A DNA stretch of 64,000 bases from an uncultured delta proteobacterium (lineage in GTDB: Bacteria > Desulfobacterota > RBG-13-43-22), in NCBI GenBank assembly GCA_963843145.1, contig CAWJJC010000020.1, forward strand, positions 192,001 to 256,000, read 5' to 3'. The translations under genes and the position numbers were made by a program. This document shows positions 2,533-35,544 of the stretch, one piece after another. Position 1 is the stretch's first letter; each line of letters starts with the position of its first letter. The notes beneath the pieces were generated by a model that saw only the letters and a list, made by a program, of their open reading frames with translations, ran no database searches and was not told where the DNA came from.

Positions 2533-2542
2533 CCCCGGCCCC

Positions 2543-5405: not shown

Positions 5406-6268
5406 TTCAGCAACAAAGAGTTCCAATCCTTGGAAAAACCGTTCATCCCCTTGATCGTCAGCTCATGGCTCAGATCAAATTCCTGCCAGGGTCGACTGAG
5501 GTCGATCTCCCGATAAGGGATCGCTTTTAAGCCCCCGGCAGCGTAATCAACCCCCGCCTCGGGAAGGGGAAGTCCCTGGTCGCCCCATTCCTTCAAGATG
5601 GCCGCGGGTGCGGTGATGATATCCGATCCCAGCTTCAAGGCATAAAGCAGATGATCTCTGGTTCTGACGCTGGCGCTCAGAACTTCCACATGGCCGTCTC
5701 CCGGCCCATACATCTGGAGAATGTGGGCGATCAGGTCCATTCCGTTTTCTCCCCGATCATCCAAACGGCCGATGAAGGGCGAGACGAAGACCTCCCCCTT
5801 CTTGGCCCCCCGGGTGGCCGCGTAAACGGCGGCCGCCTGCTCCTGGGAAAAACAGAGGGTCATATTGACCCGCAGCCCTTTTTGGACGGCCCCTTCGGCG
5901 GCCGTCAGCCCTTCCCGGGAAGTGGGAAATTTGATGTGGGCGTTGGGGATCCAGGAAAACATTTCCTGGCCCTGGACCAACATCCTTTCCGCCGGGGTGG
6001 CCGGGTCGGCATAGACTTCAATGGAGACGGACCCCTGAGGAATCAGCCTGGAGATCTCTCCGACCACCTGCCGGTAGAAGTCCAGGATCTCTCTTTCGCT
6101 GAACTTCCCCCCCTGGTCCAAATGCCGGCGCGCTTCCGGGTTTTTGGAGATGAGCGTCGGATTGGTCGTCTGACCGTCGAGGAATCCCAAACGACTGATG
6201 ATTTCCCTGGTTTCCTCCGGATTTCCCCCGTCGAGGAATATACGGCTCTTCAGCTTCTCCGGTCTCAT
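5402..6268 (-). CDS. tal: Transaldolase
   Basis: IFLDG, TTNPTLI, IKFP, VNMTLCFS, SPFIGRLDD motifs. Confidence 0.9.
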   Translation of the reverse strand: MRPEKLKSRIFLDGGNPEETREIISRLGFLDGQTTNPTLISKNPEARRHLDQGGKFSEREILDFYRQVVGEISRLIPQGSVSIEVYADPATPAERMLVQGQEMFSWIPNAHIKFPTSREGLTAAEGAVQKGLRVNMTLCFSQEQAAAVYAATRGAKKGEVFVSPFIGRLDDRGENGMDLIAHILQMYGPGDGHVEVLSASVRTRDHLLYALKLGSDIITAPAAILKEWGDQGLPLPEAGVDYAAGGLKAIPYREIDLSRPWQEFDLSHELTIKGMNGFSKDWNSLLLK

Positions 6269-6309
6269 AAAAACTCCTTTACTTTTTCCTGGGTTATTTT
6301 CAAACTGGA

Positions 6310-7866
6310 CTATTTTTCCTTTCCCTCCCCGACCTCACAACGCTGCAGGGCCTCATGGTAATGATGCAGATTGGGCATCAGCCAACTGCGGCCATCCCGG
6401 GCGATTAAATGTTCGGCGGACTCCGGCCCCCAGGTGCCGACCTGATAATTGGGAAAATTTGCGGGTACCACCTCTTCCCAGGCTTCCAAAATAGGCGTAA
6501 TAACATTCCAGGCCGCTTCCGCCTGATCCGCGCGCATGAAGAGCGTGGCATTGCCCAGCATGACATCCAGAAGCAAGGTTTCGTAGGCCTCCGGAGAGGA
6601 GACCTTAAAGGCCTCCTGATAATAAAACTCCATATCCACCGGGCTCAGACGCAAGGCCTGACCCGGGTGTTTGGCCTGAAGGCGAAGCAGAATGCCTTCC
6701 AGCGGCTGGATGGAAATAAGCAGGCGATTCGGCCGCCAATCTAAAACTGTCGAGGAAGGGAAGATCTGATGGGGGACCGGCCGAAACTGGATATTGATCT
6801 CCGAAACCTTGGCCGGCAGGCGTTTTCCGGTACGTAAATAAAAGGGAACATCCTGCCAGCGCCAGTTGTCCACAAAGAGTTTGAGGGCGGCATAGGTCTC
6901 GGTCGAGGATTCGGGAGAGACGTTCACTTCGCCGCGATAACCGGGGACGTGTTCTCCCTCGATCCAGCCGGCTTCGTACTGGCCGCGGGCGGCAAATTTG
7001 TGTATCTCATCGATCGGAATAGGCCGGATGGCATGGAGGACATCCACCTTTTTATTCCGGATTTCATTGTCGTCAAAGGAGATCATGGGTTCCATGGCCA
7101 TCAGGCAGAGGACCTGGATAAGGTGATTCTGGATCATGTCGCGGAGCGCCCCGGCCTGTTCATAGTAATGGCCGCGCTGTCCGACTCCTACCTGCTCCGC
7201 CACGGTAATCTGCACATGATCAATGTAGCGTCGGCTCCAAATGGGCTCAAAGAGGGCATTAGCAAACCGGAAGGCCAGGATATTTTGGACGGTCTCCTTC
7301 CCCAGATAATGGTCAATGCGGTAAATCTGGGATTCGTCAAAGATCCGCGTCAGAAGCTTATTCAAAGATTTGGCCGAGGCCAGGTCCCGGCCGAAAGGTT
7401 TTTCGATCACAATCCGGGTTCGCTCCCGTTCCAGGGGGATCCGGGCCTTGCCCAACTGCTCCACCACGGTCTCAATGGCTTGCGGCGGCACGGCCAGATA
7501 AAGGATACGGACGGCCTTGACGCCCCATTCCTTATCCAGGGTGGAAAATTGTTTAGCCAGTTGGGAATAAATCGGGGGGGCGTCGAATTCGGCGTCCTGG
7601 AAGGTCAGGTGAGCGGCAAAGGCCTTCCATTTCCGGCCATCGGTTTCCTTTCGCCGGGAGAACTGGATCACCCCCTGACGTAACTGTTCAATCAACGCCT
7701 TGTCGCCCTGGGATTTGTGGCCCAGGCCGATAACCAGGAATTTTTCAGGCAACCACTGATCCAGAAAGAGATCATAGAGGGCCGGAATCAGCTTGCGCCG
7801 GGCCAGGTCGCCGCCCATGCCGAAGATAACAAAGACCGTCGATTGGGGATGGAGTTCAGCCGACAA
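6310..7866 (-). CDS. zwf: Glucose-6-phosphate 1-dehydrogenase
   Basis: GMGGDLARRK, EKPFG, RIDHYLGKETVQN, RWQDVPFYLRTGKR; TTG start with AAGGAG RBS. Confidence 0.97.
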   Translation of the reverse strand: MSAELHPQSTVFVIFGMGGDLARRKLIPALYDLFLDQWLPEKFLVIGLGHKSQGDKALIEQLRQGVIQFSRRKETDGRKWKAFAAHLTFQDAEFDAPPIYSQLAKQFSTLDKEWGVKAVRILYLAVPPQAIETVVEQLGKARIPLERERTRIVIEKPFGRDLASAKSLNKLLTRIFDESQIYRIDHYLGKETVQNILAFRFANALFEPIWSRRYIDHVQITVAEQVGVGQRGHYYEQAGALRDMIQNHLIQVLCLMAMEPMISFDDNEIRNKKVDVLHAIRPIPIDEIHKFAARGQYEAGWIEGEHVPGYRGEVNVSPESSTETYAALKLFVDNWRWQDVPFYLRTGKRLPAKVSEINIQFRPVPHQIFPSSTVLDWRPNRLLISIQPLEGILLRLQAKHPGQALRLSPVDMEFYYQEAFKVSSPEAYETLLLDVMLGNATLFMRADQAEAAWNVITPILEAWEEVVPANFPNYQVGTWGPESAEHLIARDGRSWLMPNLHHYHEALQRCEVGEGKEK

Positions 7867-7875
7867 GGGGTCTCC

Positions 7876-9295
7876 TTATTCCGTGGTCCATTGGGTGTGG
7901 AAGATGCCCGGTCCATCAACCCGTTCATAGGTGTGGGCCCCGAAGTAATCCCGCTGGGCCTGAATGAGATTGGCCGGTAACCAGGGACTGCGAAGGCCGT
8001 CATAATAGGCCAGTGAGGCCATCAGACCAGGTACGGGGATTCCCAGCTCAACGGCGGTCGTTATCACCGTTCGCAAGGCATCCTGGCAGGGCTTCATCCG
8101 TTCGGCCAGATCAGGATCCAGGAGGGGATGGATCAAGTCCGGTTGAACCCGGTAGGCGGCCAGTATTTTTTCCAATAGAAAAGCCCGAATGATACAGCCG
8201 CCGCTCCAGATACGAACCACTTCCCCCAGATCCAAACCATAGTGATAGGTCCGGGAGGCCTTTCGGAGCAGGGTCAGACCCTGACCATAGGTCAGAATCA
8301 ACCCCCCATAAAGGGCTTCGCCGAGTTGGGCGATAAATCCTTCCCGCTTCCCCTGAAAAGGGAGGATACTCCTCTCCCGGCATCCGGCTGACGGCTTGCC
8401 TTTCCTGTTTACAACCGGACAGGTCCCGCATGACCACAGCCAGATCGATGGTGGGCACCGGTACCTGCAATTCCAGGGCATTCACGGAAGTCCACATTCC
8501 GGTCCCTTTTTGCCCGGCCTGATCCAGAATCTTATCGATCAAGCGGCCTCCGCTCTTCTCATCCTCCTGACGAAAGATCCGGGCGGTAATCTCGATTAAG
8601 TAGGCCTGGAGCTCGGTCTGATTCCAACGGTCGAAAATCAAAGACAAGGCATCGTTGTTCAAACCCAGTCCCTGTTTGAGAAGCTGGTAGGTCTCGGCGA
8701 TCAATTGCATGAAGCCGTATTCAATCCCGTTATGGACCATTTTAACATAGTGGCCGGCCGAACCGGGGCCCAGGTGGGCAACACAGGGGATATCCTTCAC
8801 CTTGGCGGCGATGGCCTCGAGGATCGGACGCACCCGTTCATAGGCTTGCGGAGTCCCGCCGGGCATCAGACTGGGACCGTAGCGGGCGCCTAACCCTCCT
8901 CCGGATATACCCAGTCCCAGATAAAGAAAACCCTTTCCGGCCAGTTCCCGCTCTCGACGATCGGTATCGCTGAAAAAGGAATTGCCGCCATCAATAATCA
9001 AGTCGTTTGGTTCCAGAAGGGGTAGAAGCTCCTGGATCAGCTCGTCCACCGGCCGGCCCGCGGAGATCAGCATCAGGACGGCCCGGGGTTTACGCAGGCG
9101 GCCCATGAATTCAGACAGGCTGTAGCCGGTTCCGATGGACCGCCCGGCGCCCTCCGTCTCCATAAATTCCTTTGTTTTTTCAGCCGTCCGGTTGTAGACC
9201 GCGATGGGAATTCCCTGGTCGGCAATATTTAGGGCCAGATTACGCCCCATCTCACCCAGACCAATCAGACCGATCTCATATTGATGTTCGCTCAT
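7876..9295 (-). CDS. gnd: 6-phosphogluconate dehydrogenase (long form), split by a +1 frameshift near 8356-8380
   Basis: GLGEMG, YNRT, IDGGNS, KMVHNGIEYG, QKGTG in ORF 8111..9313; WSGGCIIRA and QAQRDYFGAHTYER in ORF 7876..8481; frames can be joined at CCC TTT T CAG. Confidence 0.9.
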
Positions 9296-9455
9296 GTTTG
9301 CTCGCCTTTTCAAATAGCTACCTCAAAGGTTCCCCTTTCAGCCCCCATTTGACCAAGCGGGCCGGAGGGGATATATCAACAATATAACACCACGGTCTTC
9401 TTAATCCAAAGTTTTTTTATTCATCTAAGAGGGGATTCTTAGGAAGAACAATTAT

Positions 9456-10046: not shown

Positions 10047-12387
10047 TCATTTATGCCATTCATTCTTACGCCTTCCGTCTCCTATATCGACTATTCCCTT
10101 AGCAGGACCTCTCCCTGACGAATCGGCCTGGGGCGATCGGAGTGTTTCTCGATAAGTAATCAGGGCGGCCATGACCATGGGCACCACTCCCAGAAAGATA
10201 AAAATCAGGTCTCCGGGCATACGGCACCATTCGATGAAGCGCACAAAATCCTGGGTGACATAGGCCAGGCCCCGGGCGTGCCAGTACCCGTTTTGCAGCA
10301 CATCAACGAATTGCAGGACCCCGCCGGGAAATAAGTTTCCCAGGACCATCAGCGCCAGACCCAGGTTCAGCCCCCAGAAGGAAACCCGGATAAATTTTTC
10401 CGCTCGAACCCAGGCTTCGTCTTTCAGCACCTGACGGAAGGCCATGACGGTCAAGGCCATGGCCTCCATACCGAAAGCCCCCATCAGGGCGCTGTGGGCA
10501 TGGTTGGGCGTCAGCATCGTCCCCACCTCGAAATAACTGATGATGGGCAGGTTGATGAGAAACCCGAAAATCCCGGCCCCGACAAAATTCCAGAACCCCA
10601 CGGCCATTAAAAAATAAAAGGTCCACTTATGCGGCAGGGTCCTGGAGTGTCGCCTCCCCGGGTCACCTTGGACAAAATCCCAGGCATCCAGGGTCAGGAG
10701 AGTCAGCGGCACCACCTCCATGGCCGAAAACAGGGCCGAGAAGGCCAAATTAAAAGTAGGACTGGCCGGTCCAGTACCAGTGATGCCCGGTGCCGATGAT
10801 ACCGCTGCCCAGAAAGAGGATGGCATCCAGATAAATGACCCGGACCGCGGTCTGCCGGGAAACCAGCCCCATTCGGAAGAAAGTCACCGCCACCATGACC
10901 GTCACCAGCAGTTCCATGAACCCTTCCACCCAAAGGTGGATGATCCAAAAACGCCAGTTATCCACCAGGGTGTAGTTGGTGGTGCTGCCGAAAAAAAAAG
11001 CCGGCAGGTAAAAGAGGGGAATGGTTCCTGCCGCCACCAGGAAAAGGAGCGAGATTTCGCGGCGTTCCGGGTCGTTTAGGGCCGGTCTTACCTGGCGCCA
11101 GAGCAGAATGACCCAAACCGCCAGTCCAACGGCCAACAGCACCTGCCAGCCTCTGCCCAGATCCAGGTATTCCCATCCTTGGTGGCCGAACCAGAACCAG
11201 TACTTTCCCAGGAGATTATTGATTCCCAGGAACTCCCCCAGGAGGCTCCCCCCGACCACCAACACCAGGGCCCAAAACAGAAAATGAATACCTGGAATTT
11301 GTCCCCGGTGCTCTCCGCCATCCAAGGATGAAGCCAGCAGCAGCCCGCCTCCGATATAGGCGGTGGTGATCCAGAAAAGGGCCAGTTGCAGATGCCAGGT
11401 GCGCAAGATATTGCTCGGAAAAATCTGGTAGAGGTCAAACCCGTAAAAACTTCCCGGTTCTGCCCGTGAATGGCCTACCGCGGCGCCTATCAAGGTTTGG
11501 GCCAGAAAGAGCAGGGCCACAACGACGAAAAATTTGATGGTGGCCCGTTGGCTTGGCGTGGCCAGTCCCGGCAACAGGGCGGGATTGGGCCTAGGCGCCC
11601 CTCTCCAGCCCAGGTAGCTGAACTTGCCGAGGGCAAAGAGAATGGCGGCTGTCCCGGCCAGCAGGGTTATCAGGCTCAGGGCACTCCAGAGATAAACCTC
11701 TGGCGTCGGGGTGTTACCCACCAGCGGGTCATAGGGGAAATTATTGGTATAAGAATAAGACCGGCCGGGACGCCGGGTTACAGCGGCCCAGGCAGTCCAG
11801 GCAAAAAAGGCTGTAAGTTGCCGCAGCTCGACCGGGTCTTGGATATACTTGGCCTTCAAGCCTCCATTGAGGGCCGGGTGGACGAAATAATCCGTCCAGC
11901 GGACCACCTGCCTTTGAAAGGACAGTTCCTCGGGCCTTTGAAACAGCAAAATTCGGGTTCGGGGATCATAGCGGTTTTCTTTGAGCAGCTCCCGGGTCCG
12001 AGCCTTCAGCGCCTCGTTTTCTTCGGGAAGCAGCTCCGGGGGATTCCGGCCGAAGCCAGAACGGGCCAGGAAGAAGCCGGTATCCAGCGCTAGGGTATGC
12101 AGATATTCGGCTGAGAAGTCCGGTCCCAGGTAGGCGCCGTGTCCCCAGATGGTGCCGTTTTCCATCAGCCCATACTTGAGGAAGACCTGCTGGCCGGCCC
12201 GGATGTCCTCACCGGTAAAGAGGGTCTCCCCAGCTTCGTTGACCACTTTAGCGGGGACAGGCGGCGCCCCTCGGTAGGCTAAGATGGCAATCCAGCCCTG
12301 GATGCCGAAACAGACCAAGAGGATAAAGATGACGGCCCGCCGCCACCAGGGAGAGACTTCCTCGCTCTGTTGTTCCTGATCTACCAT
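10047..12387 (-). CDS. norZ: Quinol-dependent nitric oxide reductase (qNor), split by a +1 frameshift at ~10752
   Basis: GTIWGHGAYLGPDFSA, YTNNFPYDP, WIIHLWVEG, GTGHHWYW, then FSAMEVVPL and NHAHSAL in the next frame; junction TAC TTT T AAT. Confidence 0.92.
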
Positions 12388-12687: not shown

Positions 12688-13410
12688 CTATCCCTTGCTA
12701 TCCCCTCTTCCTTGGACCAGTACCTCCCTGATATATTGAAAAAGCTCTTTGGCTTGACTAAGGGAAATCTGAGTATCAGGGAACGAGGGCATGGGCGCCT
12801 TAGGATGACGAATCAAAGGAATAAAGGCATCGAGATCCTTCAACTTGGATGAATTTCTGATCGGTCGGTCAGGCCTGATTAAATTTCCTCCTTGGGGATG
12901 ACAAATGACGCAGTTAGCTACGAATATTTTTTCTCCGGCGACGTAGGCTCTTGCACCCTTTGGCGTTTTTTCTTCGTAAACCAATTGGGCGCCAAAAAAG
13001 CCTAAAAGAACCACGATAAAAAGGCCAAGCGTATAGATAATCAGCAGGGCCTTTGACTTGGATTCCTTCTTAAATTTGAAAAATAGGGTCGCCGACAGTA
13101 AAAGAATGAATAAGATCCCTGACAAAACCATCTTTATCTTTATAGGAAGCAGCCAGGCGCCCCGATAAAAATGCTGCCAATCCATCAGACCGAACAGAAC
13201 AACCGGAAACCAAAAGAGAAAAGCCAGAATGATGCAATGGCCTGCAGATCGGACAAGCCCCTCCTTTTTGGAAAGGAGCCCCAGCCAGCCGAATATAAAT
13301 GCCCCGGCCACCAAGCCTATAGGCAGGTGAACCAAAGCGGGATGGATAGGATGTTTATATCCAAACTGACCTGCGAGTTGGTAAAAATAGTTGGCCCATG
13401 ATTCGATCAT
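12688..13410 (-). CDS. DUF2231 membrane domain fused to a c-type cytochrome
   Basis: HPALVHLPIG motif, 4 TM segments, C-terminal CVICH heme motif and MPSF. Confidence 0.8.
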   Translation of the reverse strand: MIESWANYFYQLAGQFGYKHPIHPALVHLPIGLVAGAFIFGWLGLLSKKEGLVRSAGHCIILAFLFWFPVVLFGLMDWQHFYRGAWLLPIKIKMVLSGILFILLLSATLFFKFKKESKSKALLIIYTLGLFIVVLLGFFGAQLVYEEKTPKGARAYVAGEKIFVANCVICHPQGGNLIRPDRPIRNSSKLKDLDAFIPLIRHPKAPMPSFPDTQISLSQAKELFQYIREVLVQGRGDSKG

Positions 13411-13563: not shown

Positions 13564-14025
13564 TTAGCCTCTGATATTGTCCTGGGCCTCTCGACTCTCG
13601 ATACGCTTTTTGAGGGCCTGGCTCATCTTATCGAACCCCAGGCGGATATTTCCGGCCATCCTCCCCCATAATAGGGGAACCAGTAGCCCGCTAAACAGCT
13701 CTTTTTGTACAAATTTGACTTTTGACCCTCCCAACGGTTCAATGGCGAAAAGGTGTTCCCCGTCAAAAATTTTGGGTACCAGCCAATGGCCCACCCAGCG
13801 AAATTCATGTTCGACTTCAACCCTTAAAAGCACCGGCCGGATGGTTATCTTTGGAAAGTGGGGGGTCTGGACTACGGCCTTCAGTCGCGAGCCGGTCTGA
13901 AGGGTTCCGGCGATTCGAAGGATAAAGGGATTCCACTCGGGGTAGCGATTGAAATCGGTCAATACTTCCCAGACCCGGGTTGCTGTCCCCTCGATTTCGA
14001 TTTCGGTTTCAATGCTTCTGGTCAT
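13564..14025 (-). CDS. SRPBCC/START-fold protein
   Basis: IETEIEI, VWEVLTDFNRYPEWNPFI, FDGEH; start moved to ATG 14025. Confidence 0.85.
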   Translation of the reverse strand: MTRSIETEIEIEGTATRVWEVLTDFNRYPEWNPFILRIAGTLQTGSRLKAVVQTPHFPKITIRPVLLRVEVEHEFRWVGHWLVPKIFDGEHLFAIEPLGGSKVKFVQKELFSGLLVPLLWGRMAGNIRLGFDKMSQALKKRIESREAQDNIRG

Positions 14026-14095
14026 GGAATGATTCCCGGCCAAACCGATCTCTTGACCCTGAAGTCCATTTGGCCCGCTCTCTCTAGCAGAGAGA

Positions 14096-14175
14096 CGCTT
14101 CGCCCTTTTTGGGGGGGTACCCTCCATCTACGGTGGGACCGCCGGGTCTCGCCAAAAGGGTTTCCCAAAAGAATG
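14096..14175 (+). repeat. Dispersed intergenic repeat, copy C
   Basis: CGCTTCGCCCTTTTTGGGGGGGTACCC...CCGCCGGGTCTCGCCAAAAGGGTTTCCCAAA. Confidence 0.8.
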
Positions 14176-14188
14176 TCCAGGGCCGAGG

Positions 14189-15877
14189 TTATAGCTTACC
14201 GGATCGAAAGATGGAGAAAATGAGCCACAGGCCTAGGAGCGTGGCAATGACATAGCCGACCAGACCAAAGAGGGCGGTGATGGAAATGGTTTTTAGACCA
14301 AAGAGATTTAAACTCACCTCGAAAACCCTTTGACTCGAATTGAGGACCAGGGCGGCGGCGATAATGGAGGCCGAAATAATGAAGCCGACGGTCAACCGGT
14401 TGACCCCTTTGGCAAACTGGCTATTCAGCTTTTCCAGGCCGGTGTGCCGGAACTCCAACCGCTGGTTTCCCTGGGCGGTCTGCCGGAGGATGTCATGCAG
14501 CAACTTAGGCATCGTCCTCAGGTAACCGCCCGTGGTTCGGACTTCCTTGCCCAGGTCTCGAAAAAACTTTTTGGGATTGTAGCGGCGCTCCAGAAATCGC
14601 TCCGCGTAAGGCCGGGCCGCTTCCAGCAGGCTGGCCTCACTACCCAGGATCTTGCCCAGGGCTTCGGTTTGGATAAAGGTTTTCAGCAAGAGCAAAATGT
14701 TCCGGGGCAGTCGGATATGGTATTTGTAAACCAGTTGCATGACTTGATCGTAGACGTCCCTGACCGAGATCGTCTGCAGGGAGCGGCCGTAAAAGGGCTC
14801 GCTGATGTCCTTGAGATCCACTTGAAAGCTTTTCAGATCCATGGTCTCTTCGTCGATGATTCCCGCATCCAGCAAGGCCTCTAAGACCAGGTCATAATCG
14901 TGTTCGGCATAGCCCAGGAAGAGGTTGGCGATTTGGCCCATCATCTGTTCGTCCAGATACCCGGTAATGCCGAAATCCACCAGGGCCACCCGGCCGTCGT
15001 ACATGACGATGGTATTGCCCGGGTGCGGATCGGCATGAAAAAAACCGAATTCCATCAACTGCCGGGAAAAGGAGCGCAACCCGATGTCGGCTATTCCCTG
15101 GGGATCCAGGCCCTGGGCTCTTATGGTTTCCACCTGATCCATCTTGATGCCGTCGATATGTTCCATGACCAGAACGGACCGGCTGGTATAGTTCCAGTAC
15201 ACCTTATGGATATAGATTTCTTCGGAGTCCTTGAAATTCAGGGCGAACTTTTCAATACTGCCGGCCTCAATCAGCATGTCGAGCTCCCTGAAAATAACCC
15301 GCTCGAACTCCTTGACCAGGTTGCGCATTCCCACGATCCGGCCCATTTCGAAATACTTTTCAATTTTTTCGGCCAGATAGTACATCAAGCGGACATCCTG
15401 ACGGATCTTTTTGTCTATCCCCGGCCGGATCACCTTGACGGCCAGCCTTTCCCCGGTCGAAAGCTCGGCCAGATGAACCTGGGCTACCGAGGCCGCGGCT
15501 AGCGGTTCCGGATGGAAGGTCTGGAAAATTTCCGCCAGCGGCCGCTTTAGTTCGGCTTCGATGATCTTTTTGATCTCAGGAAAAGGAACAGGAGGGACGC
15601 GGTCCTGAAGTTTCTTAAACTCCTCGATGTAATCCGACGGGAACAGGTCTGCCCGGGTGCTCAGGAGTTGGCCCAGCTTGATGAAGCTGGGGCCCAATTC
15701 TTCGAGGGCCAGGCGGATGCGTAACGGCGAGGGGAACCCTGATTTAAAGATGAGGTCTTTGTCCTGGAAGCCCTTTTCTTTTTTCTCGGCCCGACCGGAG
15801 AGCTGTTCCCACACGTCTCCCAAGCCATGTTTGCACAGCACCCGGGTGATGGCCGCGAACCTCCTGAATCCTTTCAA
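14189..15877 (-). CDS. ubiB: UbiB/AarF (ABC1) family kinase-like protein
   Basis: LGPSFIKLGQLLSTRADL, AAASVAQVH, AVKVIRP, FFHADPHPGN, DFG; C-terminal TM helices. Confidence 0.9.
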   Translation of the reverse strand: MKGFRRFAAITRVLCKHGLGDVWEQLSGRAEKKEKGFQDKDLIFKSGFPSPLRIRLALEELGPSFIKLGQLLSTRADLFPSDYIEEFKKLQDRVPPVPFPEIKKIIEAELKRPLAEIFQTFHPEPLAAASVAQVHLAELSTGERLAVKVIRPGIDKKIRQDVRLMYYLAEKIEKYFEMGRIVGMRNLVKEFERVIFRELDMLIEAGSIEKFALNFKDSEEIYIHKVYWNYTSRSVLVMEHIDGIKMDQVETIRAQGLDPQGIADIGLRSFSRQLMEFGFFHADPHPGNTIVMYDGRVALVDFGITGYLDEQMMGQIANLFLGYAEHDYDLVLEALLDAGIIDEETMDLKSFQVDLKDISEPFYGRSLQTISVRDVYDQVMQLVYKYHIRLPRNILLLLKTFIQTEALGKILGSEASLLEAARPYAERFLERRYNPKKFFRDLGKEVRTTGGYLRTMPKLLHDILRQTAQGNQRLEFRHTGLEKLNSQFAKGVNRLTVGFIISASIIAAALVLNSSQRVFEVSLNLFGLKTISITALFGLVGYVIATLLGLWLIFSIFRSGKL

Positions 15878-15945
15878 CCCTGAAACCTCCTCTGCGTAAA
15901 CCTAAGGCCATCCGCTCCTGACGGGTCAGCCGGAAGCGCCGGGGC

Positions 15946-16185
15946 TCAGGATGGGGCCTCGCCCTTGACCTGCGGCCATTTTTTTGAAATCTCTTCGCGC
16001 TTCGTGGCCTCCGCCACATAGCGCTCCAGGTAGCCGCATTCGGCACAAACATAGTTGTCCAGGGAAGCAATGGAAAAAAGGGTTATGGGGATACTGTTAC
16101 TTCCGAAGGGGCCGAATTTGGCGGGGATCTCCGCCCCCTGGAAAACTTTGTCCGAGCCGCACTTGGGGCACTTTCCGTTTTTCAC
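15946..16185 (-). CDS. Small zinc-ribbon protein
   Basis: CPKCGS and CAECGY pairs; GTG start after GAGGAG. Confidence 0.7.
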   Translation of the reverse strand: MKNGKCPKCGSDKVFQGAEIPAKFGPFGSNSIPITLFSIASLDNYVCAECGYLERYVAEATKREEISKKWPQVKGEAPS

Positions 16186-16481
16186 TTTAGCATCTCCTCT
16201 GACGACGGGCCAGTTAAAACGTTCAGGCGGGCTGAAGCAGAACATTATTGGCAATGGAAATAGTATAAGAGAGGAAAGGGAATAGGGTCAAGGATAAAAA
16301 TGGGCCCTCGGCTCCATTCCGGCATAATCGCTTGACAGGAAACAGCTTGACAGTCTCCGGATGTCCCGTTATCTTTTCGATGAATGTCTGAGCGCTGTCC
16401 CTCTTGCAGATGAACTCTTCGTTGGGTGGCTGTTCTCGGCAACAATAGAAAAAAAAGAATTGGAATTTGAGGCCCTCCGCC

Positions 16482-17675
16482 ATGAAAAATTCGTTTTCTG
16501 CTCATCCCGGGCCCCTCCTCCTGCTGATTGCCGGGGCCAAGGGCGCCGTGGCCTCGACCGTAGCCGTTGCCGTACTGGCTCTCCGGCGGGATCCCGGGTC
16601 TATCCTTTCCAGCCTGACCACGGCAGACAAATTTCCTTACCTGGGACCGCCTCAGGCCTTTCACCTGGCAGGCTGGGACCAAAGCCGGAAGACATTGCCC
16701 GAGTCCATTGAAGCGCACGGCGTTCTTCCCGAGCACCTCTGGAAGCCCTGCCAATTCGACCTAAATCAGATGACGATCCGGGAGGCCCCGGCGCCGGATC
16801 TGGATTTCGGAACCACCGTCGAACGGCTCCGGGAGGATATCCGCTTCTTCTGCGATCTGTTCCCCGAGGCGCGGCCCGTCTTCGTCAATCTTTTACCCGC
16901 CGCCCGGCGAACGTTCCCGCTGGGCTGCCAAAGTCTCTCCGAACTCACCGCCCTGCGGAAAGCCCCCGAGCCGGTGGATTTAGCCTACACGGCCGCCGCG
17001 GTGCTTTCCGGAGTGCCGGTGGTGAATTTCACTCCCAATGAGATCGAAATTCCGCCCCTGCTTCACGAAGCCGTGGAGCGGGGAGTGCCGATCGCCGGGC
17101 GGGACGGCAAGACCGGGCAGACCTATCTGAAAGTGGTTCTGGCCTCGGCCTTGAAAGCCAGAAGATTGTACGTCGATGGCTGGTACAGCCTTAATATCCT
17201 CGGCAATGCCGATGGGAAAAACTTGATGGAACCCGGCAGGGCGGAGGGAAAACTGATCAACAAGACCGAAATCCTGGATGAACTTCTGGGCTATCCGGTG
17301 GGGGAGAGGTATCAGACCCCCTCACATAAAGTGCATATCGATTATTACCCTCCCCGGGGGGATGCCAAGGAAGCCTGGGACGTGGTCGATTTCCTGGGAC
17401 TCTTCGGACTTCCCATGAGCCTCCGCCTCAATCTTCAGGGCCGGGACTCCATTCTGGCGGCGCCCCTGGTGCTGGATCTGGCCCGCTGGATGGCGGCCCT
17501 GCAACAGGCTGGAAAATCAGGACCGGTCCCGGAGTTGGGCTTTTACTTCAAGAAACCCGTGGGGGATAATCCCCCCCTGACCTTTGAGGACCAGTGGCTC
17601 GCGCTGCAGCGTTTGGAAGCGTCTTGCGACCGGATCCTCTCTTCCCCCCGTCGGGGACACCCTCCGGTTCAATAA
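16482..17675 (+). CDS. ino1: Inositol-3-phosphate (myo-inositol-1-phosphate) synthase family
   Basis: GAKGAVAST, VNFTPN, GRDGKTGQT, NILGNADG, IDYYPPRGDAKEAWD, DSILAAPLVLDL. Confidence 0.9.
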   Translation: MKNSFSAHPGPLLLLIAGAKGAVASTVAVAVLALRRDPGSILSSLTTADKFPYLGPPQAFHLAGWDQSRKTLPESIEAHGVLPEHLWKPCQFDLNQMTIREAPAPDLDFGTTVERLREDIRFFCDLFPEARPVFVNLLPAARRTFPLGCQSLSELTALRKAPEPVDLAYTAAAVLSGVPVVNFTPNEIEIPPLLHEAVERGVPIAGRDGKTGQTYLKVVLASALKARRLYVDGWYSLNILGNADGKNLMEPGRAEGKLINKTEILDELLGYPVGERYQTPSHKVHIDYYPPRGDAKEAWDVVDFLGLFGLPMSLRLNLQGRDSILAAPLVLDLARWMAALQQAGKSGPVPELGFYFKKPVGDNPPLTFEDQWLALQRLEASCDRILSSPRRGHPPVQ

Positions 17676-17685
17676 GGAGCCTCGA

Positions 17686-18543
17686 GTGAAATTCGGATAC
17701 AGCACCAATGCCTTTGTCAAATTCTCCCTGGTAGAATCGGTGGAAAAAATTGCCCGGCTGGGTTTCGGGGGCATTGAAATCATGTGCGACCGGCCTCACC
17801 TCTATCCCCCCGATTTCGGAACCGCAGCGCTGGTCCAACTCCAAGAGCTCCTTCAGGCCCGGGACCTGAAAGTGACCAACTTGAATAGTTTCACCCTCTT
17901 TGCCGTGGGAGATACCTACCTGCCGTCCTGGATCGAACCGGAAAAAGAGAGAAGGGCTATTCGCATCCGCCACACCCTGGACTGTCTCAAGGTAGCGGCT
18001 CGCCTGGGATGCCAGAACATCTCCGTCCCGCCCGGCGGGCCCCCGAATGGCTTTTCCCGACCGGAGGCGGTCGCTCTTTTCCATCAGGGCTTGGAACAGG
18101 TCCTGCCCCTGGCGGAGTCCCTGGGGGTCAAGGTCCTGGTGGAACCGGAACCGCAGCTCCTGATTGAAAATAGCCTCCAGTTCAAGTCCTTCATTCAAGA
18201 GGTGGCCTCGCCCGCTGTGGGTTTGAATTTTGATATGGGCCATTTCTTTTGCGTGGGAGAGGACCCGGCGGCGGCCTTTGAAGAACTCTTTCCCTGGGTG
18301 GGGCATGTCCACCTGGAGGATATCGCCGCGAGCCGGGTTCACCAACACCTCATCGCCGGACAGGGAACGCTGGCCTTCCTGGATATCTTCAGGACCATGT
18401 CGCGCCTGAGCTACCGGGGCGATATCAGCTTGGAACTCTACCCCTACACCGACAGGCCGGAGGAGGCCGGTAAAGCCAGTCTCCTTTACCTGCTGCCCCT
18501 CTTTGAGGAGGCGGGACTGCCGATAGAAGGGCCCTCCCGGTGA
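17686..18543 (+). CDS. Sugar-phosphate isomerase/epimerase, xylose-isomerase-like TIM barrel (IolE/IolI-like superfamily)
   Basis: GYSTNAF, VEPEP, NFDMGH, HVHLED, H.HLIAGQG, SLELY metal motifs; GTG start after AAGGAG. Confidence 0.85.
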   Translation: MKFGYSTNAFVKFSLVESVEKIARLGFGGIEIMCDRPHLYPPDFGTAALVQLQELLQARDLKVTNLNSFTLFAVGDTYLPSWIEPEKERRAIRIRHTLDCLKVAARLGCQNISVPPGGPPNGFSRPEAVALFHQGLEQVLPLAESLGVKVLVEPEPQLLIENSLQFKSFIQEVASPAVGLNFDMGHFFCVGEDPAAAFEELFPWVGHVHLEDIAASRVHQHLIAGQGTLAFLDIFRTMSRLSYRGDISLELYPYTDRPEEAGKASLLYLLPLFEEAGLPIEGPSR

Positions 18544-18559
18544 CCGGAAGCGTAAGGAG

Positions 18560-19375
18560 ATGACGTCTAAAACTTCCCGCGGCTGGGGGAAAGAAAGCCA
18601 GGAACTGAAGCCGGTGACCTCCTCTAAAGCCGAAGAGGAAAAGGCCCATTTCGGATTCCAGGAAATTCCGGCCCAGGAAAAGGTTAAGTGGGTGCGGGAA
18701 CATTTTGATTCGATCGCCCGCAAGTACGATGTAATGAATACCTTGCTGAGCTTCGGAATTCATTACCTGTGGAAAAGGAAGGCGATCCGGCTTCTGGGAC
18801 TAAAACCGGGTGACCGGGTTATCGATGTCTGCGGCGGAACCGGCGACCTTTCCGTCCTGGCGGTGAAAAAAGTGACTCCCTCCGGCCTGGTGGTCTTATA
18901 TGATATTAATCGGAAGATGATGGCGGCGGGAAAAGGGAAGTCAACGAATAGAGCCTCTCGAGAAAAAATCCGCTATGTCCAGGGCGACGCCGAAGAGATC
19001 TCTTTTGGAGCCCAGGAGTTTGACGCCGCCCTGGTGGGATTTGGGATCCGGAACCTGACGCACCCGGAGGAGGGTTTCCGAGAGATGTACCGCGTCCTGA
19101 AACCCGGGGGGAAGTTCCTCTGTCTTGAGTTCTCGAAACCAACCGCACCGCTCTTTCGCCGGCTCTACGATTTCTATTCCTTCCGCCTGATGCCCTTTAT
19201 AGGGCTTCTCTTCGTGGGGTCGCGAAAACCCTTCACCTATCTCCCCGAGTCGATCCGGATGTTTCCTTCTCCGCAGAAATTAAGCGCCGTTCTGGAGGAG
19301 ATCGGTTTCTCCCAAGTCACCTACCGATATCTGACCAACGGTATTGCGGTCATCCATTGGGGCCTCAAAAGATGA
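18560..19375 (+). CDS. ubiE: UbiE/Coq5-type quinone C-methyltransferase
   Basis: HFGFQ, FDSIARKYDVMN, DVCGGTGD, FGIRN, YLPESIRMFP. Confidence 0.9.
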   Translation: MTSKTSRGWGKESQELKPVTSSKAEEEKAHFGFQEIPAQEKVKWVREHFDSIARKYDVMNTLLSFGIHYLWKRKAIRLLGLKPGDRVIDVCGGTGDLSVLAVKKVTPSGLVVLYDINRKMMAAGKGKSTNRASREKIRYVQGDAEEISFGAQEFDAALVGFGIRNLTHPEEGFREMYRVLKPGGKFLCLEFSKPTAPLFRRLYDFYSFRLMPFIGLLFVGSRKPFTYLPESIRMFPSPQKLSAVLEEIGFSQVTYRYLTNGIAVIHWGLKR

Positions 19376-19385
19376 GGACGTCATC

Positions 19386-19982
19386 GTGAAACTGAACTGG
19401 GCGGAGCGCTGGGTGGTGAATAACCCGCTCCGGGTCTGGGAACAACGGCTCGAAATCCGGAGGTTCAAAAGGATGATGCCCCTCAAACCAGGCGCTATCG
19501 CCCTAGAGGTGGGTTGTGGCCGAGGCGCCGCAGCCCGCTTGATCTTTAAGGAATTTCAGCTCTCGCGGGTTTACGCCATGGACCTGGATGTCCGGATGGT
19601 TCGGAAGGCCCAGGACTATCTGGCCCTCCGCGGAGAAGGACCGGTGCCCCTCTTTGTGGGAAATGTGTCCCGCCTCCCCCTGAACCCGGAATCCCTGGAC
19701 GCGGTTTTTGGTTTTGGGGTCCTGCATCATGTGGTGGATTGGCGTCTCGCCCTGGCTGAAATCGCCCGCGTCTTGAAACCGGGGGGGGTCTATTATATCG
19801 AAGAACTCTATCCGGCCCTCTACCAGAACTTCCTAACCCGGCGAATCCTGGTTCATCCGGCGGCGGACCGATTTTTTAGCCCTGACCTGAGGCAGGCTCT
19901 GCAACAAGCCGCCCTCCCCCTCAAGAGGGCCCTGGAGGTTAAACATCTTGGCCTTCTCGGTGTATCCGTCAAAGAAGGCTGA
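19386..19982 (+). CDS. Class I SAM-dependent methyltransferase
   Basis: LEVGCGRG, MDLD, GVLHHV, ARVLKPGG. Confidence 0.85.
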   Translation: MKLNWAERWVVNNPLRVWEQRLEIRRFKRMMPLKPGAIALEVGCGRGAAARLIFKEFQLSRVYAMDLDVRMVRKAQDYLALRGEGPVPLFVGNVSRLPLNPESLDAVFGFGVLHHVVDWRLALAEIARVLKPGGVYYIEELYPALYQNFLTRRILVHPAADRFFSPDLRQALQQAALPLKRALEVKHLGLLGVSVKEG

Positions 19983-19991
19983 ACAGGCGGT

Positions 19992-20705
19992 TCAGTCTCT
20001 CTCGAGGGGAAAGGTCAATTGAGCGCCAAACCAGCCAATGACGGCGGCCAGGGGTAACAGGGAAAGGATGAGCAGCGAATAAATCAGGCTGGCCAAGCTG
20101 AAAGCCTTGAGGAGTTCCGGGACGGTGATTCTCCAGAGGAAGGCGACGATTTCCGTACAGAACAGGATGACCGACACTTTCTTTTTGATGGCTACGGGTC
20201 GGACCGGTTTCGCCAGGTAGTTCAGCCACCAGGTATAGTAGCCGGTGGCCATGGCCAGCGGAGTGAAGAGAATCCCGGCTCCCAGACAGTTCAAGGCGGT
20301 TAGTTCAAAGGACCGGACCCCGGTTAAAAGATAGAGCAGATTGAACAGGGTGGTTGAGAACATAAAAACGATCGGGAAGTGGATGGTCATCGGATGGGGA
20401 TGCCGCCGGAGCATGGGGAAACGGGAAAGAAGCCGGGACAAGGACTCCGGTATTTCCCTTTCGGCACCCTCCCCTTTTTTTAAAACCGCCACCTGAGGGT
20501 ATCGTTCCAGGACCTCCGTTCCATGGGGCGCACCCTGGATATCTGTAGTCAGATCCTTCCCGGCGTGGTGACGTTTCATGTGCAGGCCACCTTTCCACAA
20601 TTTGCTTTCGCTCACGTCGAATACCTTGCCCTGGTGGGCGATGTAGATCGGTTTTCCATCTTGCCCGTTATGGGCTGACATTTCCCTGGAATCAATTTCT
20701 TTCAT
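19992..20705 (-). CDS. Cytochrome b5-like domain fused to DUF2231 membrane domain
   Basis: GKVFDVS, WKGGLHMKRHHAGKDLT, APHG; then HPMTIHFPI and 4 TM segments. Confidence 0.85.
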   Translation of the reverse strand: MKEIDSREMSAHNGQDGKPIYIAHQGKVFDVSESKLWKGGLHMKRHHAGKDLTTDIQGAPHGTEVLERYPQVAVLKKGEGAEREIPESLSRLLSRFPMLRRHPHPMTIHFPIVFMFSTTLFNLLYLLTGVRSFELTALNCLGAGILFTPLAMATGYYTWWLNYLAKPVRPVAIKKKVSVILFCTEIVAFLWRITVPELLKAFSLASLIYSLLILSLLPLAAVIGWFGAQLTFPLERD

Positions 20706-20717
20706 TCACCTTCCTTT

Positions 20718-21671
20718 TCAGAGGAGATCTTGAATCATCAAGGTAAGGCTGACCACCGCCAGCAAGGAGAACGGATAGTAGCTGGCCCGGTTAAAAAGGA
20801 CGGAGGCCTGAAGTTTCTCCTTGGTCCGGTATAGGCGGTAGGTCGGCAGGAGAAGGAGATAGAGCCCCGCACCTATCGAAACGGCCACTGCGGGAAGTTG
20901 GAAGGCTACCCGGGAAATGGAAAAGAGAACGACGTTCAGCCCGACAGCCAGCAGGAGCGAAAAAAGAATAATGGCCCAGGACCAGTCCGGCCCGAACCGG
21001 ACCGGGATCGTTTTGGCCTGGAGCATTTTGTCCGCTTCCACCTCGGTCCAGTCGGCCGGGATGTTCTGACCCCCGATTTCCCAGAAAAAAAGCCACAGAA
21101 AAAGGATGATCAGGAAGGACCAGGAAGGGCGGGGATCAACGGCGAACACCGCCGCCAGGCCCCCCGCGGTTTTCACCATCCCGCTCACCAGAGCGCGATA
21201 AGGACTGGTCCTCCAGAGGAGGCAATAGACCGTTTCCAGGGCACAGCCGCCCAAGAAGATGATCAGGCAGATCGGATTCAGCAGGTAAGCCCCGATCAAG
21301 GCCAGAAGGCCCCAGGCGATTGTCCAGAGCAGCGCCTCTCCGAAACCTAAAAGGCCGTGCGCCAAGGGATGGGGGACCAGGACGGAGTCCAGGTAATGGT
21401 CTATATCACGGAAACCAACCCGTTCTAATTTCTCCCGGTCCGCTCGATAATCTACCAGATCGTTCAGGGCATAAACCGCCGTGTAGCCGGCAAAGGCGGT
21501 TATGATACCCAGCAGGGCCACCCGCAGCGGGGGAACGGCGCCATACCCTAACAGGGCGGCCAGGGCGGGAGTAGCCATGTCCAGCAATCCGTGGGGGGTC
21601 CTGGAAAGGGCGAAAAAAAATTTTAATCGGGAAAGGCTCGACCTTGATTTTTTAAGCGGCGCAGCATTCAA
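20718..21671 (-). CDS. UbiA family prenyltransferase
   Basis: NDLVDYRAD first Asp-rich motif, DWTEVEAD..AKTIPVRFG second motif, multiple TM segments. Confidence 0.88.
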   Translation of the reverse strand: MNAAPLKKSRSSLSRLKFFFALSRTPHGLLDMATPALAALLGYGAVPPLRVALLGIITAFAGYTAVYALNDLVDYRADREKLERVGFRDIDHYLDSVLVPHPLAHGLLGFGEALLWTIAWGLLALIGAYLLNPICLIIFLGGCALETVYCLLWRTSPYRALVSGMVKTAGGLAAVFAVDPRPSWSFLIILFLWLFFWEIGGQNIPADWTEVEADKMLQAKTIPVRFGPDWSWAIILFSLLLAVGLNVVLFSISRVAFQLPAVAVSIGAGLYLLLLPTYRLYRTKEKLQASVLFNRASYYPFSLLAVVSLTLMIQDLL

Positions 21672-29659: not shown

Positions 29660-30327
29660 TTCCAACACCCCCGGTATTTACCTAGTTGTTTTTTAACAAC
29701 ATTATTTCCCTGGGAGGGGAGCGGCTGTTCCCCTTTAATGGCTTCCTGGAATATCGGCCAGATCCGGTGGATATGCCGGTCGACATCGTAGCGGCCGTCG
29801 CTCAAATACGATAATACGGCGGCGGGCTGAAACAGTCCCAGGAAGAGGACCGACACCATTTCCGGTTCAACATTTTTCCGGATCTGGCCGTTTTCTTGCC
29901 CCACCCGGACCATGGCCTCCACTCTGGAGAGAAAGGTTTTGACCAAACGATAAACCTTTTTTTTTCGGTCCGAACGGCCGGCATAAGCATCTTCGGAGAA
30001 GATGATCCGGGGGATGGCCTGGTTGTCCCTGATCATCTCCAGATGGCGCACCAACAGCAGTCTAAGCCGCTCCAACGGATCCTCGGTTTCTTTACAGACG
30101 GCGTCCACATTGTCCAGAAGTCGGCGGCGGATGATTTTCAGGGCCGCGTCCACCATCTCCTCTTTGCCCTTGAAGTGCCGGTAGAGCGCGGAGGGCACCA
30201 GGCCGATCTGGCGGGCCACGGCGGCGACACTCAACCCCTTGAGCCCTTGATCGGCCACCAGGCGCACTATGGCCTGGGCAATTTGGTCCTTCCGGATTTG
30301 GGTTTTGACTTTTTCGGCGCCCATCAT
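29656..30327 (-). CDS. TetR/AcrR family regulator
   Basis: HTH VAAVARQIGLVPSALYRHFKGKEE; first gene of the efflux operon. Confidence 0.9.
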   Translation of the reverse strand: MMGAEKVKTQIRKDQIAQAIVRLVADQGLKGLSVAAVARQIGLVPSALYRHFKGKEEMVDAALKIIRRRLLDNVDAVCKETEDPLERLRLLLVRHLEMIRDNQAIPRIIFSEDAYAGRSDRKKKVYRLVKTFLSRVEAMVRVGQENGQIRKNVEPEMVSVLFLGLFQPAAVLSYLSDGRYDVDRHIHRIWPIFQEAIKGEQPLPSQGNNVVKKQLGKYRGCWK

Positions 30328-30335
30328 GGACCTTA

Positions 30336-35116: not shown

Positions 35117-35125
35117 GAGGGCATT

Positions 35126-35527: not shown

Positions 35528-35544
35528 CCAGAAGGGAAATTGTG

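Follow-up and report, generated by a model that had tools for sequence, protein, structure and literature searches.

We describe a gene cluster in a window of 64,000 nucleotides (G000:C20:192001-256000; by the window we mean this whole stretch) from the metagenome-assembled genome (5.35 Mb, 97.9% complete) of a Desulfobacterota bacterium of the sulfate-reducer type. Its main genes encode a UbiA-superfamily prenyltransferase, a membrane protein which joins a cytochrome b5M domain to a DUF2231 domain (b5M-DUF2231), a UbiE-clade C-methyltransferase, a second methyltransferase dependent on S-adenosylmethionine (SAM), here called MT2, a UbiB kinase with a small Zn-ribbon protein (Znr), a divergent paralogue of myo-inositol-1-phosphate synthase (MIPS), here called Ino1-like, and a xylose-isomerase-like TIM barrel (TIM). 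The explanation which we prefer, tentatively and at somewhat less than an even chance, is that the region is a conserved Desulfobacterota pathway for a second prenylated quinone-type membrane lipid, made beside the menaquinone of the futalosine pathway, and that a cyclitol enters the same product.

The core of the module is the UbiA-family prenyltransferase, paired with the membrane b5M-DUF2231 protein. The UbiE-clade C-methyltransferase and the second SAM methyltransferase are usually found beside this core, the Zn-ribbon-UbiB pair sometimes. Quinol oxidases are repeatedly found adjoining the module: in other genomes this is cytochrome bd, in the window qNor together with a DUF2231-cytochrome c protein. 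A MIPS paralogue, to judge from its residues catalytically intact, and the TIM barrel head the methyltransferase operon in the window and in several separate lineages. An extra quinone-type lipid is suggested because the prenyltransferase, UbiE, MT2 and UbiB adjoin quinol oxidases in a genome which keeps both an MqnP and another UbiE apart from them. The place of Ino1-TIM in the operon, conserved repeatedly, suggests, in turn, that a cyclitol enters the same product.

The nine genes of the original prediction are all found where it had placed them, and their Pfam families are confirmed (Table 1). It had also reported gaps of 10-16 bp between ino1, TIM, ubiE and MT2, which read from the sequence are 10, 16 and 10 nt. 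The Ino1-like stop (17675) is followed after 10 nt by the GTG of TIM (17686), preceded by AAGGAG; 16 nt separate the TIM stop (18543) from the UbiE ATG (18560), and 10 nt the UbiE stop (19375) from the MT2 GTG (19386). This plus-strand group is divergent from a minus-strand run, Znr-UbiB-SRPBCC-DUF2231cytc-qNor, in which qNor is last, and convergent to the genes of b5M-DUF2231 and UbiA. The divergent intergenic region has promoter-like sites in both directions, which are consensus matches only: 16347-16375 on the plus strand (10/12) and 16291-16262 on the minus strand (10/12). Our Pfam scan covers 41 open reading frames (ORFs) of the window, with about five ORFs of at least 150 aa outside it. 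Among these 41 there is no UbiC, UbiD, UbiX, flavin hydroxylase, U32, Men or Mqn protein, in agreement with the absence of ubiC/D/X, flavin hydroxylase, ubiUV, men and mqn genes noted before. Complex I and qNor had been placed nearby: NuoF, a fused NuoBCD and qNor are indeed found in the window.

Menaquinone and inositol genes are found elsewhere in the genome. A futalosine cluster lies about 430 kb from the window (L114, G000:C20:680001-698000), with TetR, MqnE (502 bits), MqnC (two ORFs), an MTAP-like phosphorylase, an aminofutalosine-deaminase-like hydrolase, MqnL (649 bits) and an MqnP-like UbiA protein (329 bits on PRK12886). A second, housekeeping UbiE is found on contig C3 between rplQ and lepA (222 bits on NF001244). 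The canonical MIPS is on contig C27 (427 bits on TIGR03450), followed by a PIP-synthase-like gene. The prenyltransferase, UbiE and MIPS of the window are therefore extra copies. The original prediction had named, as a result that would speak against it, an ordinary MqnP/MenG identity of UbiA and UbiE with mqn genes elsewhere; what we have found is a separate MqnP-like gene within the mqn cluster and a housekeeping UbiE at another place.

MenB and MenD are not found over cut-off in the genome, and its futalosine cluster comes without any match to PF02621 (MqnA/MqnD) in the genome. An SsuA/NMT1-like binding protein which follows MqnP in this cluster has no PF02621 match either, and sits with ABC transporter genes. 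Among 21 genomes of the same order MqnE is present in five; MenD and PF02621 are over cut-off in none. We have considered Ino1-like and TIM as a replacement of MqnA/MqnD and rejected it: PF02621 is present in five of the 11 genomes with the pair described below (G040, G079, G110, G150, G152), and most members of the window's own family lack both.

The conservation of the cluster was studied around its genes. For UbiA we took the best 80 of 120 relatives and counted neighbours within 9 kb. The most frequent are b5-DUF2231 (43 loci), UbiE (38) and MT2 (27), followed by a DUF2231-cytochrome c homologue (16, usually directly upstream of UbiA), TIM (8), Znr (7), UbiB (7) and Ino1 (6); the Zn-ribbon-UbiB pair stands beside UbiA in seven loci. 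The b5-DUF2231 protein has 508 relatives, and in 57 of 78 new loci UbiA is directly upstream of it. For Ino1-like we took the best 80 of 179 relatives, all of them labelled Desulfobacterales or deltaproteobacteria. In 78 of these loci Ino1-like is followed by TIM in the same orientation; in the other two the contig ends there. A UbiE orthologue is found within 2 kb of TIM, on the same strand, in 9 of the 62 loci which have at least 1.5 kb after TIM. Other arrangements are also found: in L078 UbiB-Znr adjoin TIM and UbiE-MT2 are 6 kb away, and in L063 a UbiA orthologue adjoins UbiE. The two lists of 80 share four assemblies, a number which is uninformative since each list is only the best 80 of a larger set.

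An even sample of 301 Desulfobacterota genomes, with completeness of at least 90%, offsets the dominance of one clade in these lists. With Ino1-like orthologues defined by at least 54% identity and E<=1e-120, the Ino1-TIM pair is present in 11 of these genomes. Nine of the 11 (G000, G004, G040, G079, G110, G150, G169, G211, G234) have a gene of the UbiE clade in the same orientation, at most about 2 kb downstream. MT2 is found in 9/11 genomes with the pair and in 21/290 of the others (30/301 in all); a UbiA orthologue in 7/11 and 27/290, respectively (34/301 in all). Kinship among the genomes inflates these contrasts, which are not statistical tests. In five genomes tested where the pair is unlinked, a UbiA orthologue is always present elsewhere, and MT2 in two of them. 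When 83 Ino1-like proteins are placed in a tree, those linked to the cluster are spread over at least seven separate clades: either the order ino1-TIM-ubiE(-MT2) is old and has often been lost, or it has been assembled repeatedly. Under either history its recurrence argues for a functional tie. The conservation on which the original prediction depended is thus present, in the TIM-Ino1 pairing as well as in the UbiE gene downstream. As for named or cultured carriers (loci L139, L219 and L030), the delta proteobacterium NaphS2 has a UbiA orthologue (L139), the Olavius symbiont Delta 1 has an Ino1-TIM pair, and Desulforhabdus sp. TSK has b5M-DUF2231 with no UbiA within 6 kb.

A link to respiration is found in the neighbouring genes. 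In the window the cluster is next to qNor and the DUF2231-cytochrome c gene, and in other genomes cydAB is present in 14/80 UbiA loci, against 0/80 Ino1 loci, so that the connection to a quinol oxidase which had been predicted finds support. In L192 and L202 (G211:C1) the order is cydA-cydB-ino1-TIM-ubiE-MT2, all co-directional, and L152 has a similar order. CydB stands beside Ino1 in L159 and L164, and L127 has ubiE-MT2-cydA-cydB, also co-directional. This suggests that the genes of cytochrome bd form one transcription unit with ino1-TIM-ubiE-MT2, or with ubiE-MT2 alone in L127. Further neighbours include DsbD_2, and loci labelled Syntrophobacteraceae have fumarase, SdhAB, citrate synthase and aconitase as neighbours. 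Two genomes, G012 (100% complete) and G019 (93%), have UbiA and UbiE orthologues, and no MqnE, MenD or MqnA/D was detected in them. The module is the only quinone-type pathway detected there, which is suggestive only; the argument is weakened by G010, G011 and G016 of the same order, which have neither MqnE nor the module.

In three metatranscriptome libraries from wetlands there are contigs, 90-99% alike, which cover parts of Ino1, TIM, UbiE, MT2, b5-DUF2231 and UbiA, and one of them, of 201 nt, bridges the Ino1 stop and the TIM start. These contigs are short, large parts of the stretch are uncovered, and no level, start or end can be read from them. They are weak evidence of expression because DNA can be present in RNA libraries: the contigs show presence only.

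The Ino1-like protein resembles solved MIPS structures (PDB 7nwr, E 2.7e-47; Archaeoglobus fulgidus 1u1i, E 5.8e-39). Aligned to 1u1i, its residues N243, L245, K262, K266, K301, D327 and K362 correspond to N255, L257, K274, K278, K306, D332 and K367: all are kept. We take the catalytic roles of these A. fulgidus residues to be those indicated by the mutant structures 3qvw, 3qvx and 3qw2. On the inositol-3-phosphate synthase model TIGR03450 the protein has 43.3 bits and does not pass; the cut-off of 638 is an actinobacterial one, and the canonical MIPS of the genome (426.9 bits) is also below it. Ino1-like is probably a working cyclase-reductase, as far as its residues tell, releasing a saturated cyclitol phosphate.

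The TIM barrel has a mean column identity of 71% over 33 sequences. Its invariant residues include E153/E155, H186, H209, E211/D212 and E250, the usual acidic and histidine metal ligands. The folds closest to its model (pLDDT 91) are MJ1311 (3wqo, Z 32.0), the Art22 isomerase (31.7) and UlaE (30.6), followed by ketose 3-epimerases and xylose isomerase. Since ketose epimerases, xylose isomerase and UlaE are all within 2-3 Z units of MJ1311, the fold leaves the reaction unfixed. The model is compatible with a metal-dependent enzyme like the keto-sugar isomerases and epimerases, which could precede the cyclase, with a keto-sugar phosphate as substrate, or come after it, with an inosose. TIM stays below the cut-offs of two specific models, with 29.9 bits on inosose dehydratase IolE (TIGR04379, cut-off 290) and 29.7 on EboE (NF035939, cut-off 250). 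Its match with AsbF (3dx5), E 6e-7, extends over no more than 78 residues; dehydratase chemistry is compatible with the fold which they share.

The UbiA protein of the window passes no specific model. The generic ubiA_other model gives the best match found with 40 orthologues (E 2e-28), and the best PDB profile match of the window protein is digeranylgeranylglyceryl phosphate (DGGGP) synthase, E 1.4e-5. It has 23.2 bits on the 4-hydroxybenzoate prenyltransferase model TIGR01474, with a cut-off of 275, 27 on PRK12874 (392), and 19-24 on the MqnP models (375-420). In the protein atlas it falls only in generic 'UbiA family' clusters of Thermodesulfobacteriota. In five UbiA orthologues from the window's own family (G009, G012, G018, G019, G020) the matched stretch contains a single stop codon, TGA in four cases and TAA in the fifth, perhaps because the match extends beyond an upstream stop.

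The b5 domain of its partner is a cytochrome b5M: in the model of the protein (pLDDT 83) the N-domain superposes on 6vz6 with Z 15.5 and a root-mean-square deviation (rmsd) of 0.8 over 76 residues, with 47% identity. All 41 sequences compared keep the heme contacts S34, H42, H46 and H61; according to the part of bioRxiv 10.1101/2021.11.30.470528 available to us, H42 and H61 are the bis-His ligands, with S34 and H46 as further contacts. The DUF2231 part forms a membrane bundle of four helices, in which the motif HPHP..H (H102, H104, H109) is invariant. A fold search with it gave generic helical bundles only, with Z about 10-12.6, in the range expected for such bundles. The predicted complex of UbiA with b5M-DUF2231 has a score of 0.00, which speaks neither for nor against their pairing.

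UbiB of the window is a clear member of the ABC1 family, with 33% identity to E. coli UbiB; it passes neither TIGR01982 (435.8 bits, cut-off 487.55) nor PRK04750 (378.7, cut-off 667). Orthologues of Znr, with 51-86% identity, are found directly upstream of UbiB in L117, L158, L162, L163, L178, L184, L187 and L078. The SRPBCC protein has no homologue beside the cluster in any other locus (tblastn, E<=1e-8).

The UbiE of the window passes the equivalog model NF001244 (226 bits, cut-off 216) and stays below the cut-off of the MpqE model NF052510 (276.7 bits, 335). It scores about 80-100 bits more on UbiE/MpqE models than on those restricted to demethylmenaquinone, and it is closer to E. coli UbiE (44% identity) than to the housekeeping UbiE of its own genome (35%). 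In a tree with these two as the only references, and the housekeeping copy as root, the UbiE proteins of the window, of the Ino1 loci and of the UbiA loci form one clade, with E. coli UbiE as its sister. MT2 passes no specific family model. In L161, L169, L173, L174, L188 and L194 there is a divergent UbiE-like protein (29-36% identity), which forms a separate branch of the tree, and an MT2-like protein (40-45%), co-directional and upstream of a UbiA orthologue. We found no fusion among Ino1, TIM, UbiE and MT2 in six loci inspected: the long open frames are separate genes.

If these proteins act in one pathway, Ino1-like would cyclise a hexose-6-phosphate to a cyclitol phosphate, and TIM would isomerise or dehydrate the keto form of the cyclitol, or prepare the sugar phosphate beforehand. 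The cyclitol product would then join the lipid: it might be aromatised to a polyhydroxybenzene, prenylated by UbiA and methylated by UbiE and MT2, with the core of thallusin as an analogy, or it might be a head-group unit of the lipid. The b5M-DUF2231 protein may supply or remove electrons, and UbiB, the Zn-ribbon protein and the SRPBCC protein may handle the lipid, which would serve the O2- and NO-reducing quinol oxidases.

Several observations weigh against such a common pathway. In 53 of the 62 informative Ino1 loci there is no UbiE within 2 kb downstream of the pair, and the main synteny groups of Ino1 are flanked by unrelated genes: ABC transporter, P-type ATPase, Lon, DnaJ, molybdopterin enzyme. 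The locus of a sister species (L001) has kept ino1-TIM-ubiE-MT2-b5DUF and lost UbiA. The UbiA orthologue is missing from 4/11 genomes with the pair, and the pair is missing from 27/34 genomes with UbiA, so that it cannot be a general source of the ring. Cluster-type UbiE is the sole PF01209 match at E<=1e-30 in G040, G110 and G150, three of five genomes tested, which also have MqnA/D and a UbiA protein at MqnP level; it therefore probably methylates menaquinone in these genomes, like the bifunctional enzyme of E. coli. As the full set of MIPS catalytic residues that we checked is kept in Ino1-like, a saturated cyclitol phosphate would be its expected product. The UbiA subfamily does not appear assignable to aromatic acceptors by the models which it matches. 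Finally, no dehydrogenase, phosphatase, decarboxylase or hydroxylase is encoded in the cluster; for the phosphatase and dehydrogenase steps this had already been noted.

Many of these points would be explained if the cluster had two unrelated parts. Ino1-TIM would then be a housekeeping cyclitol pathway of Desulfobacterales, making an inositol isomer for lipids, solutes or a redox buffer, and UbiE a menaquinone methyltransferase; they would share only a regulation in the defence against O2 and NO, with cytochrome bd and qNor. The unlinked pairs with housekeeping flanks, the intact catalytic residues, the strong conservation of TIM, which fits a central role, and the genomes with a single UbiE all agree with it. 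However, a canonical MIPS and a PIP synthase are already encoded elsewhere in the genome, ino1-TIM-ubiE(-MT2) stand in this order in at least seven clades of the Ino1 tree and in most genomes of the even sample which have the pair, and MT2 and UbiA accompany the pair far above background, even if kinship inflates the contrast. We consider this alternative possible, and rather unlikely.

An ordinary pathway to a benzoquinone of the ubiquinone, plastoquinone or methyl-plastoquinone type would start from an aromatic acid such as 4-hydroxybenzoate, with the decarboxylase and the hydroxylase encoded elsewhere or not yet recognised, and Ino1-TIM would not be the source of the ring. The UbiA family, UbiB, the UbiE clade and a second methyltransferase match the methyl-plastoquinone core as it is given in the part of PMC11874023 that we consulted, UbiE has 276.7 bits on the MpqE model, and most UbiA clusters have no Ino1-TIM. 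Two further UbiD homologues are found outside the window: a generic one on contig C10 and a phenylphosphate-carboxylase-like one, which would yield 4-hydroxybenzoate. The latter (L109, G000:C20:467835-471443) has 484 bits, with a cut-off of 469 for the beta-subunit of phenylphosphate carboxylase; it adjoins a fragment similar to phosphoenolpyruvate (PEP) synthase and a CoA ligase, and looks like anaerobic phenol catabolism. However, UbiA scores very low on the 4-hydroxybenzoate and MqnP models, MpqE and UbiB remain below their cut-offs, and the operonic position of Ino1-TIM is left unexplained. Among the conserved neighbours of the 80 UbiA loci there is no UbiC, UbiD, UbiX or hydroxylase; UbiU/V were not searched in the genome. 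We find this pathway unlikely.

We are just as doubtful of the strongest form of the cyclitol proposal, in which the benzoquinone ring itself would be made from glucose-6-phosphate with no need of O2, chorismate or ring hydroxylases. Ino1-like and TIM would provide a cyclitol of the inosose type, which would lose water to give tetra- or trihydroxybenzene; UbiA would then prenylate it, UbiE and MT2 would methylate it, and a quinone of higher potential would feed cytochrome bd and qNor in anaerobes which depend on menaquinone for the rest. The original prediction is supported only in part: this ring route, its central inference, faces the counter-evidence given above.

Much less probable is a non-respiratory meroterpenoid similar to the products of ebo genes, a signal or protective metabolite which would join a cyclitol-derived aromatic to a prenyl chain. 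The superfamilies of the cyclitol-phosphate synthase, the TIM barrel and UbiA are shared, and an Actinomycetota variant with Ino1 and isomerases/dehydratases has been reported in the part of the ebo preprint seen (cited below). But TIM is far from the EboE cut-off and no other gene of the genome matches EboE, TatD, EboA and phosphodiesterase genes are absent from the 41 ORFs scanned, and UbiE, UbiB and the neighbourhoods with cydAB or qNor point to respiration. Least probable of all is that UbiA and b5M-DUF2231 modify heme for the neighbouring oxidases, as the heme O and heme A synthases do, with the methyltransferases and Ino1-TIM as bystanders: the partner of the UbiA-family enzyme is a membrane protein rich in His which binds heme, near cytochrome bd, qNor, DUF2231-cytochrome c and DsbD_2, but only 17/40 UbiA orthologues match the heme O synthase model, the best with E 5e-12 against 2e-28 for ubiA_other, the DUF2231 fold search found only generic bundles, and UbiE, MT2 and UbiB are the steadiest other neighbours.

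The features of the cluster and its immediate surroundings are given in Table 1. Of the two ORFs of qNor, one covers positions 2-268 of the COX1 profile and the other 268-435. The 6-phosphogluconate dehydrogenase gene (7876-9313) and MqnC of the futalosine cluster (L114:8387-9407) are also split into two overlapping ORFs; MqnC is unsplit in four relatives. DNA contigs of run X1 and the RNA contigs have an extra C after position 17643. The assembly probably has homopolymer indel errors, and the qNor split is probably an assembly indel, so that the split genes found here need not be pseudogenes. We have also considered a frameshift near the C-terminus of Ino1 and rejected it: only the non-conserved tail would be affected, and the frame of the window agrees with that of the sister species.

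Table 1. Position of the features in the cluster and of its nearest neighbours; coordinates refer to the window
Feature	Position	Strand	Evidence
qNor, two overlapping ORFs	10047..12387 (10750-12387 + 10047-10826)	-	NorB cytochrome c-like domain, 184 bits
DUF2231 membrane domain with C-terminal c-type cytochrome domain	12688..13410	-	DUF2231, 52 bits; Cytochrome_CBB3, 32 bits
SRPBCC/START-type lipid-binding protein	13564..14127	-	Polyketide_cyc2, 54 bits
UbiB/ABC1 atypical kinase	14189..15877	-	ABC1, 253 bits
Small Zn-ribbon protein (Znr)	15946..16254	-	Weak Zn-ribbon matches, all below cut-off
Divergent intergenic region between the Znr-ubiB and ino1 operons	16255..16466 (212 nt)	.	Promoter-like sites both ways
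Ino1-like, divergent MIPS paralogue, 402 aa	16467..17675	+	Inos-1-P_synth, 103.4 bits (cut-off 27); NAD_binding_5, 72.5 (cut-off 25)
Xylose-isomerase-like TIM barrel, 285 aa	17686..18543 (ORF from 17584)	+	Pfam, 134 bits
UbiE-clade quinol C-methyltransferase	18560..19375	+	Ubie_methyltran, 252 bits
MT2, second class I SAM methyltransferase, 198 aa from GTG 19386	19386..19982 (ORF from 19344)	+	Methyltransf_11, 80 bits
Cytochrome b5M domain with four-helix DUF2231 membrane domain	19992..20705	-	Pfam Cyt-b5 and DUF2231
UbiA-superfamily prenyltransferase	20718..21671	-	UbiA, 87 bits

Before the cluster, at 737-9313 of the window, we find NuoF and a fused NuoB-C-D (818 aa), followed by transaldolase, glucose-6-phosphate dehydrogenase and 6-phosphogluconate dehydrogenase. 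Enzymes which use glucose-6-phosphate are thus within a few kb of the MIPS paralogue; no conserved link of these genes to the cluster was seen in the other loci. On the other side, the region 30000-36000 has a GC content of 0.42-0.48, against about 0.56 elsewhere, and contains a carbamoyltransferase and an ORF of 452 aa to which Pfam assigns no family: it is possibly an island of foreign origin.

The module bears on how strict anaerobes which rely on low-potential menaquinone feed electrons to O2- and NO-reducing quinol oxidases, and also on how high-potential quinones arose before oxygen was abundant. It is widespread: besides the UbiA orthologues in 34 of the 301 sampled genomes, the species collection has 508 loci which encode b5M-DUF2231. 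Should the product of the module be a quinone, the few respiratory quinones of bacteria would gain a new member. If the cyclitol supplied the ring, the head group of a benzoquinone would have a new origin, free of hydroxylases and oxygen, which could suggest candidates for unresolved steps of related pathways. On a more modest reading, three orphan families gain a context from the cluster: the MIPS paralogue and TIM beside it, DUF2231, and the UbiA subfamily of the module.

We have found no earlier description of the module in the full texts searched, and nothing relevant on DUF2231, on MJ1311 or on MIPS with menaquinone in Desulfobacter. It is not described in the parts of PMC13386864 and PMC11874023 consulted, whose supplementary tables may list such genes. 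According to the first of these, a 2026 survey of quinones, the Desulfobacterota class GWC2-55-46 has a full set of genes for O2-independent ubiquinone synthesis (ubiA,B,C,D,E,G,K,X,T,U,V) in genomes with no menaquinone genes, and the rest of the phylum is treated as menaquinone producers; that pathway, as given there, differs from the module of the window. The second, in the part available, reports methyl-plastoquinone only in Nitrospirota, with mpqA, mpqB and mpqE conserved and the C1 hydroxylase unresolved.

We have compared the module with the known counterparts UbiA/MpqA, UbiB/MpqB, UbiE/MpqE and UbiG or PlqQ/MpqQ. With the ubiquinone, plastoquinone and methyl-plastoquinone pathways it has in common a UbiA-superfamily enzyme, UbiB/ABC1, a UbiE-clade enzyme and a second SAM methyltransferase, and it also neighbours quinol oxidases. 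It differs in that its UbiA is only distantly similar to the 4-hydroxybenzoate enzymes (23-27 bits) and no UbiC, UbiD, UbiX or ring hydroxylase is found in the cluster; its cytochrome b5M-DUF2231 partner and its MIPS paralogue with the TIM barrel have no counterpart in these pathways. The late futalosine pathway (MqnP, MqnL/M and a UbiE-type enzyme) also has UbiA-family and UbiE-family enzymes, in a phylum which makes menaquinone. However, the genome has its own MqnP-like gene and MqnL, the window UbiA is remote from MqnP, and G040, G079 and G110 carry both a strong UbiA of MqnP level and the UbiA of the cluster.

The canonical MIPS with its PIP synthase shares fold and catalytic residues with Ino1-like, which is nevertheless a divergent second copy (43 against 427 bits on TIGR03450) and is paired with TIM, not with a CDP-alcohol transferase. 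The closest solved relative of TIM is MJ1311 of Methanocaldococcus jannaschii (3wqo, similar to D-tagatose 3-epimerase), with E 2.8e-15 and an rmsd of 1.9 over 258 residues aligned; their identity is only 26%, and MJ1311 itself has no known function. The ebo system shares with the module a sugar-phosphate cyclase, a xylose-isomerase-like TIM barrel and a UbiA-type prenyltransferase; the module has UbiE, MT2, UbiB and b5M-DUF2231 instead of its other genes. The only match to EboE in the genome is the TIM gene of the window, with 28.9 bits. Since EboE is not matched, the module is not an ebo system. EboA, the TatD-like EboB and the phosphodiesterase EboF are not found among the 41 ORFs scanned, the rest of the genome not having been searched for them, which agrees with what had been noted for the window. 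As reported in the part of bioRxiv 10.64898/2026.05.21.724671 that we could consult, the genes eboABCDEF make thallusin from a cyclitol-derived hydroxylated aromatic which is prenylated by EboC, and in an Actinomycetota variant EboD is replaced by Ino1 together with two presumed isomerases/dehydratases. To the extent of that source, this route is a precedent for the chemistry from cyclitol to aromatic ring which had been proposed in the original prediction.

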